Positions 9,263 to 24,428 of a DNA stretch of 32,000 bases are shown piece by piece. The notes beneath the pieces were generated by a model that was not told the DNA's origin, searched no databases, and saw nothing but the letters and a program-made list of their open reading frames with translations. Source of the DNA: Sinorhizobium meliloti (GTDB lineage: Bacteria; Pseudomonadota; Alphaproteobacteria; Rhizobiales; Rhizobiaceae); assembly GCF_017876815.1 (NCBI RefSeq), contig NZ_JAGIOS010000001.1, positions 60,001-92,000 of the forward strand, in the 5' to 3' direction. Every line of letters begins with the position of its first letter. The first letter of the stretch is position 1. A program made the position numbers and the translations under genes.

Positions 9263-10718
<1,456 letters not shown>

Positions 10719-10722
<4 letters not shown>

Positions 10723-11198
10723 CGTGCCCAGACTCCGCCCGGAGGCCACTGCTCCGTCTCATGGTCCGGATCCTGAAACGAGATGATCTGCTCCTGCCGC
10801 CCGTAATAGTCGGGATCGTCGTGAACCGGCTGCTCGAAGATCGATTCGACCCAGGGAAGCCGGGACTGGTAATTGACTTGGATTTTCGGCGCGAGATCGG
10901 AGCGGTCGTCGAAGGCGCCGATGGCGATTTCGAGGCCGCCGGGATGCCGATAGGTCAGCGGCGTGCCGCATTTCGGGCAGAAGCCGCGATCGATATTAAC
11001 TGATGACTGAAAGTAGCTCGGCTCGTCACGGGTCCACTCGACCCCGTCCTTCGGCGCCGTCACCAAGGCGGAGAAGAAAGAGCCGAACTGCTTCTGGCAC
11101 ATGCGGCAATGGCAGATCGAGGGGCGCCCGAGCTCTCCGCGGATGCGGAAGCGGACGGCCCCGCACTGGCAGCCTCCAGTCCTGACGGCAGTGTTCAT
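10719..11198 (-). CDS. GFA family zinc protein, paralogue 2
   Basis: MNTAVRTGGCQCG...ICHCRMCQK...FCPKCGTPL. The ATG at 11198 overlaps the stop of paralogue 3 (ATGA). The longer 310-aa track ORF is an artefactual upstream extension in an Arg-rich frame. Confidence 0.8.
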
Positions 11199-11677
11199 CC
11201 TCTTTCCTCCGGTGGCCAGGTTTCGGTGTCGTGGTCGGGGTGCTGATAGGAAACGAGATCGGCAAGAAACGAGACAGCCTCGGGGTCGGCCATGGTCTCT
11301 TCGCCGGGCAGCTTGGATACGTGATCGACATAGGGCAGTTTCCCTTCGACGCCCCATTGGATGGTCGGCGCGATGCCTTCCGGCCTGTCGAATGCAGCGA
11401 TCGCGAGCGCCATGCCATCCGGCGCCTCGTAGGTCAGCGGTGTTCCGCAGTCGCCGCAGAAGCCGCGCCAGACCACATTCGAGGACCGGAAGCGCTTGCG
11501 CTCGCCGCGGGTCCATACGAGCTTCGCGCCGCGTACGGAAACGAGCGGCAGGTAGAAATTGCCGCTCGCCTTCTGACACATGCGGCAATGGCAGACGGAA
11601 GCATCGCCGAGTTTGCCCTCGACGCGGAAACGGACCGCACCACACTGGCATCCGCCCGTATTGATCTCGTCAGCCAT
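11195..11677 (-). CDS. GFA family zinc protein, paralogue 3
   Basis: MADEINTGGCQCG...VCHCRMCQK...FCGDCGTPL. ATG at 11677 is preceded by a GGAGG RBS. The C-terminal HPDHDTETWPPEE tail is shared with paralogues 1 and 2. Confidence 0.8.
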   Translation of the reverse strand: MADEINTGGCQCGAVRFRVEGKLGDASVCHCRMCQKASGNFYLPLVSVRGAKLVWTRGERKRFRSSNVVWRGFCGDCGTPLTYEAPDGMALAIAAFDRPEGIAPTIQWGVEGKLPYVDHVSKLPGEETMADPEAVSFLADLVSYQHPDHDTETWPPEERG

Positions 11678-11727
11678 ATCGCCCTCCTCTTTCCTCCGGC
11701 GTGCCGGCAGCGCCATCATCCTTAAAA

Positions 11728-19855: not shown

Positions 19856-19955
19856 CGCTGCCGCGTCGCTGGCATACGCGCAAACGGCAGTTGTGACGGG
19901 TCTGCAGCGCGGGCTTACCGTCGACGGCATCAACTGCCGCTATAAGTGGCGTAGC

Positions 19956-20000
19956 CGTAAGCGAGAGCAGCGGCACTTGGTAATGGCTGCTTCTCTTACG
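19956..20000. terminator. Imperfect hairpin at the left islet border between convergent nadQ and the acyltransferase gene
   Basis: Arms cgtaagcgagagcagc / gctgcttctcttacg give about 14 bp with small bulges and a 14-nt loop. No U-run is present, so this may be a structural or terminator element only. Confidence 0.3.
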
Positions 20001-20028
20001 CCGCTATGCTGCTCATTCGCGGATTGGC

Positions 20029-20526
20029 TCAATCATCATGAGTTTCGATATCGGCTCCAATGCGGAAAGAGCGGGTTGGTCGGGTAACCAAAGGGTTTTT
20101 CCAAACCTGCACTCGTCTAATGGCACCGTCAGCTTTTCTCCTGATCGCATAAGCCTTGTTGTGATCGGCGAAATAGTTTTGATGGAGATCCCGCTTGATC
20201 CGCGGAAGTATATTCCCGACGGGAGCGACGATATCGATGAACCAGAGATGGTTCCCCGAAGCCCACTTGCCCGGTGGGGGATTGCATCCTTCGCGGAGCA
20301 GTGCTTCATGGTCGTCGTTGTCAACAAGTGCCCAGGTAACGAATGCGTTCGGTCGCCCTTCTTCGTCGAAGTACACTTTGCACTGACCGGCTTGAAGCGC
20401 AGGTATGATGTTACGACTTATGTCCGCAACGAACCAGTGTTTGTAGTCGCAATCCATCATGAGCGCAGTGACCATTCCGAGCGCTTCAAAAAAATCTAGG
20501 CGAACCTCCTTTGTCTTCTCCGTCAA
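20029..20526 (-). CDS. HlyC/CyaC/RtxC-family toxin-activating acyltransferase (TAAT)
   Basis: 165 aa. It aligns by eye to E. coli HlyC: ...KHWFVADISRNIIPALQAGQ..., ...AFVTWALV..., W.SGNHLWFIDIVAPVG. The proposed catalytic His/Asp equivalents are present (H30, D98). The TTG start overlaps the HlyD-family stop (TTGA). Confidence 0.8.
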   Translation of the reverse strand: MTEKTKEVRLDFFEALGMVTALMMDCDYKHWFVADISRNIIPALQAGQCKVYFDEEGRPNAFVTWALVDNDDHEALLREGCNPPPGKWASGNHLWFIDIVAPVGNILPRIKRDLHQNYFADHNKAYAIRRKADGAIRRVQVWKNPLVTRPTRSFRIGADIETHDD

Positions 20527-21845
20527 CGTTCCCCTAATCCGTCTTGAATTGCCTTGATTATTGGCTCGAAGAAGTAACTAATGAGCCGCCGTTCACCCGT
20601 TATCACATCGATCGTCGCAGTCATGCCGGGCGAGAACCCTATGTCGCGCCCGCCTATCCCAATTGTCTCTTGGTCGAGTACAAGGTGGATTGCGTAGACC
20701 CATTTCCCTGGGACGATGTCGCCGCGCGCATCCGCACCAACTCTAGTCACCCGACCGCGAACAATACCGAAACGTTCGGCCGGAAAGGCGTCAAACTTCA
20801 CAAATGCCTCTTGCCCTTTTTCAAGAAAGCCGATGTCACGGTTGTCGAAGAAAGCTTCAATCTCCATGCCATCGCCGGAAGGTACGATGGACATGAGTGT
20901 TGAACCTGCTTCCACGAAACCGCCGATGGTAAATACCGTGAGGTTCTCGACCTTGCCATCTGCTGGTGCGCGAATCGCGAGCAAGGCCAGTTGGTTCCTA
21001 GCCGCGCTCAGTTCCGCTTCCAGCCCTGCAAGGGACGTGCTCGCCTCGTTCAGTTGTTTCTGATAGTTCTCGACTGCGGTCGAAATGATGCTCTGCCGCT
21101 GTCTAGCCAACGCGTTCGCTTCCGCTGCAAGGATATTCAATTCGCTCTCGGAGATGAGCACCTCCAGTTCGCGTGCTCTTTGCTCACGCAATCGCTCGAA
21201 GTAGTCTACTTCGCTGATGGCTCCCTTGTCCTTCAACTTGCCGGCTGACAAAAATTTCCTGGAGGAAATATCCAGATCAGACCGAGCTTTCTGCAGTCGC
21301 GCCTGCTGGGTTATTCGCGATTGTTCGACACGATCAAGTTGCGCATTGATCCGCGCAACCTGATCTCGAAGAGACGTTAGCACAGCCTCTATAAGTGCCT
21401 CCGCTCCGTCGATAACCTCCAGGTCATGCCGCTCCCTTTCGAAGGCAGCTCTGCCTGCCGCAAGCACATCATCGTTTGCGACTGCAACATTTGTCAGCGC
21501 CGCAATGATTACTCGGGCAACCGTCGCCCCGCGACGTTGGCGACGAACCTCGGTCAGCCTGAGCTTGATCTGGCTCTCAACCGAGACGGTATCCATGCCG
21601 ACTAACAAGTCACCAGCCTTCACCGGCTGCCCCTCTGTGACCAGGATGCGTATGATCCTCCCGTTGGTCTGTGGCTGAACGAGCTGAACCCTGCTGACTG
21701 GAATAACCTTGCCTTGACCTCGGGCCACTATTTCGATCTTGAGCCAATAGCCTCCAACGAAAATCGCGACCAGACCCGAAATCAGAACCCAAGTGGTTAA
21801 GCGCACGGTTGGCGAGACTGGCCTCTCGATGACGGCTTCCTTCAT
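20523..21845 (-). CDS. HlyD-family type I secretion periplasmic adaptor (membrane fusion protein)
   Basis: 440 aa from MKEAVIERP. N-terminal TM, a lipoyl-like GQGKVIP...VQPQTNGRIIRILVTEGQPVKAGDLL segment, a long coiled coil and a C-terminal beta-barrel ending ...ERRLISYFFEPI. The ATG lies 1 nt after the ABC gene stop. Confidence 0.85.
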   Translation of the reverse strand: MKEAVIERPVSPTVRLTTWVLISGLVAIFVGGYWLKIEIVARGQGKVIPVSRVQLVQPQTNGRIIRILVTEGQPVKAGDLLVGMDTVSVESQIKLRLTEVRRQRRGATVARVIIAALTNVAVANDDVLAAGRAAFERERHDLEVIDGAEALIEAVLTSLRDQVARINAQLDRVEQSRITQQARLQKARSDLDISSRKFLSAGKLKDKGAISEVDYFERLREQRARELEVLISESELNILAAEANALARQRQSIISTAVENYQKQLNEASTSLAGLEAELSAARNQLALLAIRAPADGKVENLTVFTIGGFVEAGSTLMSIVPSGDGMEIEAFFDNRDIGFLEKGQEAFVKFDAFPAERFGIVRGRVTRVGADARGDIVPGKWVYAIHLVLDQETIGIGGRDIGFSPGMTATIDVITGERRLISYFFEPIIKAIQDGLGER

Positions 21846-21846
21846 A

Positions 21847-23604
21847 CTAAGTCTGCCTGGAACTATCGCTGGGGCGCTGCAATTGAGCAATGTTGACCAT
21901 GTTCACGTCACTGCCAAACAGCTCGGGATTGTGAGTGACAATAATCACGGTGCTCTTGACGGCGTGCCGCTTAATCGCAGCAATGACGATGTCAGCAGAT
22001 GCGGAATCAAGCGCGCTGGTGGGTTCGTCGAGGATCAGTGCACGGGATGGCGACACAAGGGCCCGTGCAAGTGCAATGCGCTGGCGCTGACCACCAGAAA
22101 GGTAAGCGCCACGTTCGCCAACGTCCGTGAGTATGCCATTTGGCAGCTCCCCAATAAACAAATCGCAACCGCTTTCGACCAAAGCCGAACGGATTTCCTG
22201 ATCCGTTGCGGCGGCGTTGCCCAAGAGAATGTTGTCCTGAACGGAACCCGAAAATAGTTCCGGCTCCTGCGGAAGATACGCAATCGCTTGCCGCACGCTG
22301 CGTTCATCGTAGTCAGTGAGTTTATGTCCGTTCGCCTCAACCACTCCGCAATCCGGCCTGTAAATGCCGCTGATAAGCTTGGCGAGAGTAGACTTGCCAC
22401 AGCCCGATGGGCCGGTAATCACCGTTGGGCGGTCCGGGGATATCTCCAGAGTGAGGTCAAGGATAACAGGTTGCTCGGGTAGATAGCAAAACGATACGGC
22501 CTCCAAGTGGAGACTCAGCCGGCCGGACACGGGGAGCGGCGGCTTGGAAATATCGGTTTCTGCTGCGGCATTCAATAAATCGCCTAACCTCAGCCGAGCG
22601 ATCCGAAGTGCCTGCCATTGTTCCCACACTGCCGACAGGGAGAGGATCGGCCCAGCCACCTTGTCGGCCAGCAGGTGAAATGCAATCAGCTGCCCGAGCG
22701 TGATCTCATTTCGCAAGACGAGATGAGATCCGAAAAAGACGATCGATATAACCGAAACGTTGCCTAAAAGTCCGCCGGTAAAGCCATTGACAATATGGAG
22801 CTTGGTTACTTCAAAACCGGCAAGGAGACTATCTGCCAATGTACGGTTAAGCCGCTCCGATTGTACCGCCTCGCATCCAAGCGCCTTGACGGTGACTACG
22901 TTAGCCAACGTCTCCACGAGACGAGACTGGTGCCTGGAATAGTCCAAAAAAGCCCTCTGCATGCGTCGTCGTGTCAGCGGCCCAATGACACCGAACGCGA
23001 TTACTTGCAGAGGCAGAACGATCAAAACGATAAGCGTCAGCATAGGGCTGATGGTTATCAGAGCAGCGACGTAGATAATCGCGAACAGCAAATCGACCAA
23101 AATGCTGGAAACGGTTCCTGTTAGGAATGCTTTGACCGTGTCGATTTCGGAAATGCGGGTTAGCGTTTCCCCCACCCGCCAACATTGAAGTTGCCTCAAC
23201 GGCAGATGAAGGACATGCCGGAAGATTCGGCCGGCGAGATCCAACGTCAGCCGATTGCCCATGTGGTTTCCGAGATAGGCCGCCAGCGCGTCCAGAATAG
23301 CGGACAAGATCGCGGTAACGCCGAGAACAACTACGATCAGCAGCAGTGTTGCTTCCCGCTGGAACGGCAGGACCCGATCAATGACAGCCTGAAAGACAAA
23401 AGGCTGTACCAAGCCAAGCAACCGCATCACAATCGCTACGATCATGAGTTCGATCATTAATGGTGTGTAGAAAAATGTGGTGCGCGTGAACCACGAAAGA
23501 GGTGCTAATCGGAGATTATCCACCACTTCGTAAGTATCCCCCACCACACTCGAAGATCGTCTCCCGCAATTATCCCTGATACCAGAATCAATTTGACTCC
23601 TCAA
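21847..23604 (-). CDS. Type I secretion ABC exporter (permease/ATPase) without C39 or C39-like N-terminal domain
   Basis: Up to 585 aa. The TMD start LSWFTRTTFFYTPLMIELMIVAIVMRLLGLVQPFVFQAVIDRVL resembles HlyB (…FTWFIP…FFQVVMDKVL). NBD has GPSGCGKST, LSGGQRQR and ILDEPTSALD. There is no in-frame ATG before TM1. The frame opens at TTG 23604; GTG codons 20, 21, 27 and 28 are alternative starts. A stop closes the frame upstream. Confidence 0.8.
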   Translation of the reverse strand: MRSQIDSGIRDNCGRRSSSVVGDTYEVVDNLRLAPLSWFTRTTFFYTPLMIELMIVAIVMRLLGLVQPFVFQAVIDRVLPFQREATLLLIVVVLGVTAILSAILDALAAYLGNHMGNRLTLDLAGRIFRHVLHLPLRQLQCWRVGETLTRISEIDTVKAFLTGTVSSILVDLLFAIIYVAALITISPMLTLIVLIVLPLQVIAFGVIGPLTRRRMQRAFLDYSRHQSRLVETLANVVTVKALGCEAVQSERLNRTLADSLLAGFEVTKLHIVNGFTGGLLGNVSVISIVFFGSHLVLRNEITLGQLIAFHLLADKVAGPILSLSAVWEQWQALRIARLRLGDLLNAAAETDISKPPLPVSGRLSLHLEAVSFCYLPEQPVILDLTLEISPDRPTVITGPSGCGKSTLAKLISGIYRPDCGVVEANGHKLTDYDERSVRQAIAYLPQEPELFSGSVQDNILLGNAAATDQEIRSALVESGCDLFIGELPNGILTDVGERGAYLSGGQRQRIALARALVSPSRALILDEPTSALDSASADIVIAAIKRHAVKSTVIIVTHNPELFGSDVNMVNIAQLQRPSDSSRQT

Positions 23605-23613
23605 CCAAAAAGC

Positions 23614-23625
23614 ACAATATATTGT
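23614..23625. promoter_or_regulatory. Perfect 12-bp palindrome ACAATATATTGT in the divergent control region (candidate operator)
   Basis: Self-complementary 12-mer located 10 nt upstream of the ABC exporter reading frame, inside the AT-rich 23605-23735 spacer. That spacer also contains CTATAAT (23704-23710). Confidence 0.25.
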
Positions 23626-23735
23626 TTAGTGACCATCAGCGTCTTTATGCTGAGATAGGCGACGCTATAGCTCTGCTATCGGGGATCTAGACGAGATTAT
23701 ACCCTATAATTGCCGCCATTATTGTGTTTTTGTCG

Positions 23736-23861
23736 ATGACAATCGTGGATTATATTATAGAAATTGCAGGGTTGTCTCCGCCAAAATGGGTTACCCTTCT
23801 CATCTATGCCATAATCAACTACGTGATTTATTTGGTCGTACTGCATTTTGCTAACGTTTGA
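23736..23861 (+). CDS. 41-aa hydrophobic mini-protein (candidate immunity / membrane peptide)
   Basis: Hand-translated as MTIVDYIIEIAGLSPPKWVTLLIYAIINYVIYLVVLHFANV. One predicted TM helix. It lies immediately upstream of, and co-directional with, the glycine-zipper gene. No obvious SD. Below the ORF-track length cut-off. Confidence 0.35.
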   Translation: MTIVDYIIEIAGLSPPKWVTLLIYAIINYVIYLVVLHFANV

Positions 23862-23912
23862 ATGGATTGCGACCTATCAGAGGTAGAAACGTTACTGGAT
23901 TGGAGAACTGCG

Positions 23913-24191
23913 ATGGGAAGTTCAGGTGGGTCAGGCGGGTCAGGCAACAACAATCCCAGTGCGGGGCGTGTTGGTAGTGCAATAGGGGTAGTTGTTGGAG
24001 GAACGATCGGCTCCGCTTATGGTGGACCGATGGGCAGCCGTGTCGGCGGCGTAATAGGTGGGCTCGCTGGTTACGCCGTAGGGAGCTCCGTTGGCAACGG
24101 AGCGCCAGATTACCGCGGCTATAACCCCATGGGAGACTATGGTGGCGGCGGCTCTCCCGGCCCTGGAGCTGGAGGGTTTGGCGGCCGCTAA
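23913..24191 (+). CDS. Glycine-zipper mini-protein, putative T1SS-exported bacteriocin-like cargo (CdzC/D-like)
   Basis: 92 aa with 35 Gly. Gly occurs at residues 21, 25, 29, 33, 37, 41, 45, 49, 53, 57 and 61, giving ten consecutive GxxxG units. No Sec signal or lipobox. GGAG lies 7 nt upstream of ATG 23913. A terminator follows. The track ORF (from 23862) adds 17 residues without an RBS. Confidence 0.7.
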   Translation: MGSSGGSGGSGNNNPSAGRVGSAIGVVVGGTIGSAYGGPMGSRVGGVIGGLAGYAVGSSVGNGAPDYRGYNPMGDYGGGGSPGPGAGGFGGR

Positions 24192-24212
24192 CCTTCGATA
24201 ATGACAGAACGG

Positions 24213-24245
24213 AAACGCGGCGAGGTTTTTGCTTTGCCGCGTTTT
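24213..24245 (+). terminator. Rho-independent terminator of the glycine-zipper gene
   Basis: 9-bp stem aaacgcggc / gccgcgttt with a 14-nt loop, ending in a tttt run 22 nt after the TAA stop. Confidence 0.6.
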
Positions 24246-24428
24246 AGCGTGTGGTTGGCGGCAATGACTTGGCAGCGACAGTTGGGACGAAATGTTTTGG
24301 GTTCGTTGCGGCTCAACGCCAGCCAAGCCAGCTGGCCTGCTTACCCGAAACAGCCCGCCAATACGTTCCTCGTTCGTGCGGCCCCCAAGGTGGCTCGGAC
24401 GCGCACAGAAACGTACTGGCGACATGCA

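Follow-up and report, generated by a model that had tools for sequence, protein, structure and literature searches.

What does a toxin-activating acyltransferase act on when the peptide encoded beside it contains no lysine? The question is raised by an islet of low GC content in the chromosome of Sinorhizobium meliloti, which spans about 19.9-24.25 kb of the 32,000-nucleotide stretch analysed here (the window; positions 60,001 to 92,000 of contig NZ_JAGIOS010000001.1, assembly GCF_017876815.1). The islet consists of five open reading frames (ORFs). Three on the minus strand encode an ATP-binding cassette (ABC) transporter and an HlyD-family adaptor, both components of a type I secretion system (T1SS), and a toxin-activating acyltransferase (TAAT, the HlyC family). 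Two on the plus strand are a mini-ORF and the gene for a small glycine-zipper peptide, referred to below as the cargo. To our knowledge, lysine is the only residue that TAATs acylate. Related clusters in Rhizobiales share one peptide N-terminus, and the enzyme therefore probably modifies the peptide in an undescribed way. The balance tips slightly towards the islet being a microcin-like bacteriocin module of an undescribed type, in which a leaderless cargo is modified by the TAAT and exported by ABC and HlyD.

The acyltransferase gene and its product

The TAAT gene (20029..20526, minus strand) encodes 165 amino acid residues from a TTG start. A sequence-only reading of the stretch had placed this ORF in the HlyC family, and profile searches agreed: the product matched PF02794 along the entire profile (1-127/127) with E=9.6e-40 and 135.8 bits against a cut-off of 25. 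The identities that had been proposed for the other four ORFs were also borne out, namely an ABC transporter, an HlyD adaptor (TIGR01843), a transmembrane mini-ORF and a glycine-zipper protein. The TAAT sequence also matched the ApxC structure 4whn (E=3e-10). When its AlphaFold model (pLDDT 86.4) was compared by Foldseek, the top matches were the chains of 4whn (TM-score 0.67-0.68, E=1e-9); GNAT enzymes, including N-terminal acetyltransferases, followed far behind, and ApxC was the sole strong match. The stop codon of the adaptor gene and the TTG start of the TAAT gene overlap as TTGA. In support of the TTG start, homologues conserve residues 9-17 of the TAAT, which precede the NCBI-style ATG.

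The equivalent of the catalytic Asp (ApxC Asp93, CdiC Asp107) is D98, in the motif WFIDIVAP, and the Arg equivalent is R130; both are invariant in 24 aligned relatives. The position of the catalytic His (HlyC His23, ApxC His24, CdiC His37) is occupied by Tyr28, DCD-YKHW aligning with SPLHRKW with a one-residue deletion. The replacement is not confined to the window: Tyr is found at this position in most of the clade to which the enzyme belongs, and in MchD of E. coli CFT073. His is kept in the sister loci L009, L011, L012, L014, L034 and L035, which have the same cargo type.

The RTX-linked TAATs of beta-proteobacteria (L018-L028) have Lys at this position, in the motif DPVKKF. The TAAT family thus includes enzymes without the 'invariant' His.

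The TAAT gene is under purifying selection, with a dN/dS of 0.18 for a pair of Tyr-type TAATs and 0.08 for a His-type pair, and is taken to be a working gene. The mechanism favoured for these enzymes is a direct attack, with Asp acting as the base and His doing no more than donating a proton to the departing acyl carrier protein (ACP) thiolate; ApxC and CdiC in which Ala replaces the His stay active (PMC8510554). From this Asp-based mechanism we infer that Tyr28 would be compatible with catalysis. Inactivity of the TAAT through the His-to-Tyr replacement was considered and given less weight, on account of the purifying selection, the invariant Asp, the identical Tyr of MchD and the activity of the His-to-Ala enzymes (PMC8510554).

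The cargo peptide

TAATs acylate internal Lys residues (PMC8510554). No such acceptor is available in the adjacent cargo, which contains no Lys at all. The cargo gene (23913..24191, plus strand) encodes a leaderless double glycine-zipper peptide of 92 residues from ATG 23913, starting MGSSGGSGGSGNNN...; its full sequence is MGSSGGSGGSGNNNPSAGRVGSAIGVVVGGTIGSAYGGPMGSRVGGVIGGLAGYAVGSSVGNGAPDYRGYNPMGDYGGGGSPGPGAGGFGGR. A GGAG Shine-Dalgarno sequence at 23902-23905 lies 7 nt before the ATG. The peptide is 38% Gly and also lacks Cys, His and Glu. Two in-register GxxxG runs can be read from the sequence, G21-G37 and G41-G61, with Pro39 between them, and the C-terminal 30 residues are polar and Gly-rich, ending ...GGFGGR. 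The peptide matched PF05433 (E=1.5e-5, above the gathering score) and PF13488 (E=1e-4). The members of these families SlyB and the 17-kDa antigen are Lgt/Lsp lipoproteins and not toxins, in which lipid and zipper are combined by the Sec/Lgt route. The proposal in the sequence-only reading of an acyl-modified zipper toxin of a kind not yet described thus needs amendment on two counts: the Lys chemistry of HlyC is impossible, unchanged, on a peptide with no Lys, and lipid-anchored zipper proteins exist, though not as toxins.

An in-frame ATG further upstream, at 23862, has no Shine-Dalgarno sequence and would add 17 residues to give 109. The 17 codons between ATG 23862 and ATG 23913 (MDCDLSEVETLLDWRTA) weakly resemble the leader of the Bosea-type cargos described below, with 5/17 identities, and may be the relic of a lost leader, or chance. 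Because it lacks a Shine-Dalgarno sequence and departs from the double-glycine consensus, the extension was rejected as a leader and remains no more than a caveat.

The core of the cargo is 53% identical to that of P0011 (locus L003). P0011 has a canonical double-glycine leader (MRELTLAEMRFVSGG), and its gene lies after genes for HlyD and an ABC transporter with a C39 peptidase domain and before a 51-aa ORF; this locus is a classic class II bacteriocin cassette. There is no TAAT gene on its 3.9-kb contig. As the core is like that of P0011 and the leader has been replaced, the window cargo is a relative of leader-type bacteriocins with a swapped N-terminus.

Related loci in Rhizobiales

The comparative set was drawn from pattern scans of genome and metagenome contigs, plus one profile search; word-indexed protein searches gave 9 matches for the TAAT and 2 for the cargo. 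About 20 loci had TAATs 44-59% identical to that of the window, in Pararhizobium, Rhizobium herbae, R. lemnae, R. tropici, Mesorhizobium, Ensifer adhaerens, Bosea and metagenomes. Their ABC transporters are 50-66% identical to the window ABC and have no N-domain, and their HlyD homologues are 45-58% identical and always encoded after the ABC gene. Genes for ABC and HlyD were present wherever the flanks sufficed, except in L015 and in the shortened second copy L016, and wherever the T1SS was present all four genes (cargo, TAAT, ABC and HlyD) were together. The TAAT gene is divergent in L013, L033 and L060; cargo and TAAT stay together despite the varying gene order. Because the same gene set recurs in about 20 other Rhizobiales loci, the arrangement in the window is not due to chance. 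Locus L015 is a GC-poor mini-islet of TAAT, cargo and a transmembrane ORF alone, with no T1SS within 8 kb. This links the cargo module to the TAAT itself, beyond any link to the pump.

Conservation of the Gly-rich ORF beside such T1SS and TAAT genes was confirmed. Homologues of the window peptide are encoded in L011 (53% identity) and L015 (61% identity), cargos of the window type lie beside the TAAT operon in L011, L012, L014, L015 and L035/36, and other loci carry analogous cargos. Small ORFs with 1-4 transmembrane segments adjoin the cargo in most loci, downstream of it in L005-7, L011, L012, L014 and L068 and upstream in L015. No RTX protein was found in the fetched flanks (1-8 kb, depending on the contig) of any locus of this alpha-proteobacterial clade. 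The more distant TAATs of beta-proteobacteria have a large RTX protein with 14-48 GGxGxD motifs directly upstream, in those loci that extend upstream.

Among 1.84 billion representatives, a profile search gave 2341 TAAT clusters, 13 of them with E<=1e-30; so few clusters at this level mark the Rhizobiales clade as a rare branch. The alpha clade was monophyletic in a neighbour-joining tree, where it stood apart from ApxC, from the RTX-linked group, from a second small-peptide-linked group and from MchD.

A second and seemingly unrelated family of TAATs with small proteins was seen on metagenome contigs (L061-L063, L065 and L067), the TAATs being 31-37% identical to that of the window. These loci begin with two tandem TAAT paralogues, the upstream one shortened in L065 and L067. 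The cargos share the N-terminus M(S/N)(N/T)L(Y/H)(K/T)x(I/V)NGFD(A/S)(I/L)SGAAF, followed by a long poly-Gly tract. Their C-termini vary (cargos of 108 aa, of 335 aa, and of 152 aa with a weak phospholipase A2 match), and immunity-like genes come next. In L061-63 the immunity-like genes are followed by genes for a 734-aa ABC with an extra N-domain, HlyD, OEP and a cupin; in L067 a 559-aa ABC is encoded downstream, and HlyD, OEP and cupin genes lie upstream. This family suggests that the theme of a TAAT with a Gly-tract toxin and a T1SS is broader than Rhizobiales.

The conserved N-terminal module

The feature that unites the cargos of the alpha clade is their N-terminus. We counted ORFs of at least 50 aa that are preceded by a Shine-Dalgarno sequence and start with Met-Gly followed by a Ser/Gly/Asn-rich tract. 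Exactly one such ORF, always adjoining the operon, was present in 19/21 alpha-clade loci, and none was found in 463 kb of the other fetched loci. The window cargo starts MGSSGG, and the tracts include MGSGNSGGSG, MGSGGSGS, MGSRSGNSGS, MGGSSNSE, MGGSSDSS, MGSASGQSGG, MGSGNSSGGG, MGSSSSGSS, MGSKGNGNSS, MGSRGGGSGS, MGSGSGSRNN and MGSSGGGGGG. A GGAG-type Shine-Dalgarno sequence lies a few nucleotides upstream in 14 of the 15 tabulated cargo genes, the remaining one having a weaker match, and four of the 15 have no in-frame start further upstream.

At least five unrelated types of C-terminus follow the module: the glycine zipper; a Gly/Ala-rich type with two Cys; and types with GTDCHYxTPVGGF, with CGSCH, and with DYPFRGGFY...DREFDHGR. 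A constant module with variable C-termini and an adjoining small membrane ORF fits the anatomy of polymorphic toxin/immunity pairs. Since several cargos have no Lys (those of the window, L011, L014, L015, L035/36 and L034), a conserved Lys acceptor is excluded. All that the Met-Gly-type cargos have in common is Met1-Gly2 with Ser nearby. G-K-G motifs (GGKGNKG, VGKGAG) occur in this N-terminal stretch in some of the cargos that do contain Lys, so the site of modification may differ between cargo types. Covariation between an MGS start with Tyr and an MGG start with His was not used as evidence, being a single transition that is confounded with phylogeny.

The exceptions to the module are the Bosea-type loci L009 (8526-9489) and L034 (7554-7871), whose glycine-zipper cargos start with the leader-like MYDTLEERLGIRIAHGG, followed by ERGGGGGGG. 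Here one or two zipper genes lie downstream of, and co-directional with, ABC-HlyD-TAAT, and the TAAT keeps its His. One zipper copy is free of Lys, and in another there are three G-K or Q-K sites.

In every type, most cargos end with Arg or Arg-Arg, often after Gly (GGFGGR, GGFGRR, GGFDGGR, SQGGR, SGLR, GSRR, SYRR and DHGRR). These ends were read off for the window, L001, L008-L016, L033-L036, L060 and L068, and could be a C-terminal signal for export or processing. In L060 (4975-5442) and L064 (2497-2964) a conserved 155-aa protein with four transmembrane segments is encoded between the cargo and ABC genes. It has EExxK and HxxxN-like motifs, which we take to be reminiscent of the CPBP/Abi bacteriocin-immunity proteases. 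Neither the 155-aa transmembrane proteins nor the non-zipper cargo types had a match in Pfam or NCBIfam.

Export genes, control regions and setting of the islet

The ABC permease/ATPase gene (21847..23604, minus strand) has a maximal ORF of 585 aa with matches to PF00664 and PF00005 only. Its start is likely to be GTG 23547, which gives 566 aa, the length annotated in strain Ak57. The profile search gave no match to PF03412 (C39), and the HlyB model TIGR01846 aligned only from its position 126 onward. The ABC therefore has neither a C39 peptidase nor a C39-like N-domain. The HlyD-family periplasmic adaptor (20523..21845, minus strand) has 440 aa from ATG 21845, within a frame that is open to 21890 (455 codons), and matched the type I HlyD model TIGR01843 with E=3.6e-135, above the cut-off. 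The ABC stop codon TAG is separated from the adaptor ATG by one T; this one-nucleotide gap and the TTGA overlap were both described correctly in the sequence-only reading, as was the absence from the islet of an RTX gene or GGxGxD array and of an outer-membrane factor gene. No RTX repeat array was found anywhere in the window, isolated single GGxGxD matches occurring in two frames, all outside the islet.

Between the two transcription units lies an AT-rich divergent control region (23605..23912, GC about 0.45) with promoter-like hexamers on both strands, which overlap the mini-ORF. These matches are no commoner than in shuffled sequence and are candidates only. The mini-ORF (23724..23861, plus strand) encodes 45 aa from GTG, or the 41 aa described earlier from ATG 23736, and has one strongly hydrophobic segment and one Lys. 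It is a candidate immunity protein. There was no match to it in Pfam or NCBIfam, and none by tblastn in the related loci. Only one TGA (23859-23861), with ATG 23862 directly after it, divides the mini-ORF from the cargo ORF, which shares its frame. At the right edge of the islet, 3' of the cargo ORF, an intrinsic-terminator-like hairpin (24213..24244, plus strand) has a 14-bp stem, AAACGCGGC.../...GCCGCGTTT. It has a dG of -27.8 kcal/mol (z -4.3), and none of 200 shuffled sequences folded as well. A simple terminator scan had missed this hairpin, the terminator that the sequence-only reading had placed after the 92-aa zipper protein.

The low GC content described earlier was likewise confirmed: GC is 0.45-0.57 over 20001-24000 and 0.63-0.69 in both flanks. 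At third codon positions (GC3) it is 0.56-0.60 in the three large minus-strand ORFs and 0.73-0.85 in the remaining called genes. The islet lies between the gene for an NrtR-type NAD regulator and sodC-nadC-nadB, and the nrtR stop codon is the exact point at which homology to other Sinorhizobium species ends. Searches at the islet for signatures of mobile elements revealed no tRNA and no flanking direct or inverted repeats that would mark an integration site. The islet is a horizontally acquired, self-contained module.

The window is 99.6% identical to strain Ak57. Its copy of the islet is intact; damaged copies are found in other S. meliloti strains. Ak57 (L058) has an in-frame 162-nt deletion of the zipper core, equivalent to window 23919-24080; in P0010 the C-terminus of the cargo is frameshifted; in P0001, with 35 member sequences, a deletion of about 2.4 kb has fused ABC' to the TAAT; and P0007 and P0008 are shortened TAATs. 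These strain-specific lesions amount to recurrent decay, within one species, of what would be a toxin locus.

A model for the islet

From gene content and conservation we infer how the peptide would be modified, exported, toxic to competitors and tolerated by its producer. No cleavable leader would be present on the cargo as synthesised. An initiator Met followed by Gly is taken off, which leaves a free alpha-amine on the Gly; with Gly2 the cargo should be a good substrate for methionine aminopeptidase and would lose its Met. The presumably membrane-active double zipper would then be preceded by an exposed, flexible Gly/Ser-rich module, GSSGGSGGSG. The co-transcribed TAAT would recognise this module and modify the peptide in the cytoplasm. 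Because the cargo has no Lys, in the most likely reaction acyl-ACP would donate a fatty acyl group to the Gly2 alpha-amine, or to the hydroxyl of a neighbouring Ser (Ser3 or Ser4). The alpha-amine of Gly is a better nucleophile at neutral pH than the epsilon-amine of Lys. ABC and HlyD would then export the peptide through a chromosomal TolC-type channel. Lipid tail and zipper together might keep it on membranes, at the surface of the producer or of the target, where it would damage competitors, and the 45-aa membrane mini-ORF is the candidate for immunity.

A bolder form of this model is tentative, and we give it clearly less credence than the module itself: the Rhizobiales TAAT clade might be a bacterial counterpart of N-myristoyltransferase, acylating, once the Met is gone, the N-terminal Gly alpha-amine or an adjacent Ser of leaderless and in many cases Lys-free peptides, with the MG(S/G)-rich module as a portable 'lipidate-and-export' tag on lipidated polymorphic T1SS bacteriocins. 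A bacteriocin is favoured because the zipper core is like that of P0011, with its double-glycine leader and C39-ABC, and because small transmembrane ORFs adjoin the cargos. Full-text searches of the literature turned up no report that pairs a TAAT with small, leaderless peptides of a T1SS, though they did bring up the MchD/MceI and CdiC cases compared below.

Several observations weigh against a TAAT-modified bacteriocin. The Tyr that replaces the catalytic His could mean that the enzyme is weakened or carries out other chemistry, and TAATs are known only as lysine acyltransferases or, as with MceI, within another conjugation. NCBI uses the in-frame ATG 23862 in another strain (P0010), and if that start were used, Gly would not be N-terminal in the window cargo. 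The leader of the Bosea-type cargos likewise means that an N-terminal Gly is not a universal acceptor, unless the leader is cleaved. The mini-ORF has no Shine-Dalgarno sequence and no homologue outside S. meliloti, and it overlaps promoter-like sites. Finally, the islet is broken in several ways in other S. meliloti strains and may be of little current use to the species.

Alternative explanations

Two alternatives give the TAAT another role towards the cargo, and both are unlikely. The enzyme might carry out an MchD/MceI-like conjugation, linking a siderophore or sugar-type moiety to the Gly/Ser tract of a 'Trojan-horse' microcin with no fatty acid involved. The PF02794 enzymes MchD and MceI do have small Gly-rich microcins as substrates, at a terminal tract rich in Gly and Ser (PMC3281104, PMC10233263). 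CFT073 MchD has 29% identity to the window TAAT (E=8e-12) and the same Tyr, and TAAT and MchC genes have been noted in Serratia microcin loci (PMC13101503). However, genes for an MchC/MceJ (SelO-like) protein, a glycosyltransferase or an esterase are missing from the islet and did not turn up among those called in the related loci, and an N-terminal tract offers no free carboxylate to activate. The alpha clade did not group with MchD in the neighbour-joining tree; on this ground, and from the absence of MchC, we rejected the clade as MchD orthologues. With about the same low probability, the TAAT might have lost efficient catalysis and bind the module as a cytoplasmic chaperone or targeting factor, passing the leaderless peptide on to the ABC, which has no peptidase. 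Such a role would suit an enzyme whose catalytic His has been replaced in the window and most of the clade, a cargo with no Lys, and an ABC without a substrate-binding N-domain, to which another recognition factor would be useful. It would not explain why all 24 aligned sequences keep the catalytic Asp and the equivalent of the Arg, why the same-cargo sister loci L011, L012 and L014 keep the His, or why L015 keeps TAAT and cargo with no T1SS within 8 kb; moreover, TAATs without the His stay active (PMC8510554).

It is also improbable, a little more so, that the cargo is an unmodified Cdz-like or class IIa-like bacteriocin and the TAAT a relic, or an enzyme for another, RTX-type or Lys-bearing substrate encoded elsewhere. 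The absence of Lys and the decay of the islet in other strains, including the shortened TAATs P0007 and P0008, would be expected in that case, and Cdz works without a modification enzyme (PMC5380434). Against this, the TAAT gene is translationally coupled to the adaptor gene by the TTGA overlap and has been kept with the cargo in about 20 loci under purifying selection, and no RTX protein lies in the fetched flanks of the alpha-clade loci, whereas the beta-proteobacterial relatives always have one directly upstream where their loci reach that far. Least probable of those considered is that the peptides are not weapons, but secreted surface, matrix or signalling peptides with a part in aggregation or biofilm, which the TAAT anchors to the outer membrane. 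Glycine-zipper peptides do aggregate, CdzC forming surface aggregates (PMC5380434), and class II microcins can reportedly promote biofilm (PMC13188072). Polymorphic C-termini beside small transmembrane ORFs, with one cargo-transmembrane pair per locus, are by contrast typical of toxin/immunity pairs, as are presence/absence and decay at the level of strains, and the closest leader-bearing homologue, P0011, is encoded in a classic bacteriocin export cassette.

Implications

The link between a TAAT and a bacteriocin itself has precedent. A conserved TAAT whose sole plausible substrate has no Lys would widen the chemistry of the family, and could provide a cytoplasmic route to lipidated secreted peptides in Gram-negative bacteria that is independent of Sec and Lgt. 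The module shared by at least five C-terminal types is a sequence handle for finding new rhizobial bacteriocins, and a candidate tag for engineered secretion or lipidation. Competition between rhizobial strains matters for nodulation and for the performance of inoculants.

Elsewhere in the window, and unrelated to the islet, two neighbouring minus-strand genes (10222-10749 and 11195-11719) encode paralogues of about 175 aa with the motif GGCQCGAVR(Y/F)R(A/V)EG...HCRMCQK, presumably of the Cys-rich GFA/CENP-V family.

Comparison with known systems

The sequence-only reading had called the module Cdz-like, and the zipper and the dedicated T1SS justify part of that name. Like the Caulobacter CdzABCDI system, the islet encodes a peptide of <151 aa whose two glycine zippers precede a short polar C-terminus, a dedicated ABC and adaptor (a T1SS within 10 kb) and a small membrane immunity candidate, with TolC in trans and an alpha-proteobacterial host. 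However, Cdz-like proteins are defined by a leader that ends in G[G/A/S] and is cleaved off, CdzC and CdzD form a two-peptide toxin, and the cdz cluster has no obvious modification enzymes (PMC5380434). The islet has a single leaderless peptide starting MGSSGG, a TAAT, an ABC without a peptidase domain, and a single-transmembrane 45-aa orphan ORF in place of the multi-transmembrane CdzI. It is by their published descriptions that CdzC and CdzD are set apart from the islet peptide. The earlier suggestion that the acyltransferase replaces the second toxin component found no support.

With the RTX operons hlyCABD the islet shares the TAAT fold (ApxC, 4whn), the catalytic Asp, the coupling of a TAAT to an HlyB/HlyD-type T1SS and an outer-membrane factor encoded elsewhere. 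It differs in having no RTX protein or nonapeptide repeats, a cargo of 92 aa that is free of Lys, an ABC without a C39-like domain, the gene order B-D-C with a divergent cargo, and Tyr for the catalytic His. HlyC-type enzymes had been regarded in the sequence-only reading as partners of large RTX toxins; the family assignment stands, but that account omits the MchD/MceI microcins (PMC3281104, PMC3692055) and CdiC (PMC8510554). CdiC is a TAAT that lipidates class IV CdiA at Lys1467, and the lipid is proposed to aid binding to the target envelope (PMC8510554). Here, and putatively in the islet, a TAAT has been recruited to a non-RTX antibacterial toxin. CdiA, in contrast, exceeds 3000 aa, uses type V secretion and has a defined Lys acceptor, and the His/Asp dyad of CdiC is intact.

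Class IIa microcins and other double-glycine bacteriocins, represented by P0011, share the zipper core (53% identity), the ABC/HlyD cassette and a small downstream ORF. P0011 has a leader, a C39-ABC and no TAAT, whereas the window peptide has the MG-Ser/Gly module.

The closest precedent for the islet is provided by the class IIb siderophore microcins. Here MchD/MceI together with MchC/MceJ attach a siderophore to the C-terminal Gly/Ser-rich tract of microcins exported by ABC and HlyD, and MceI and MchD need this terminal tract (PMC3281104, PMC10233263); BAGEL3 accordingly has a rule 'Microcin (PF02794)' (PMC3692055). These systems (MccH47, E492) share with the islet a small, Gly-rich, hydrophobic (putative) bacteriocin with a terminal Gly/Ser-rich tract, a PF02794 maturation enzyme (29% identity, with the same Tyr), small membrane genes for immunity and a dedicated ABC and HlyD-family exporter, theirs being MchEF, that uses TolC. 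The islet differs in that MchC/MceJ, the enterobactin glycosyltransferase and the esterase are absent, the tract is N-terminal and not C-terminal, there is no double-glycine leader, the ABC has no C39 peptidase, the host is alpha-proteobacterial and the TAAT belongs to a separate clade. Set beside these systems, the islet type is one of leaderless polymorphic peptides that carry an MG-Ser/Gly module, with a peptidase-less ABC/HlyD exporter and a dedicated TAAT whose substrate is not Lys.

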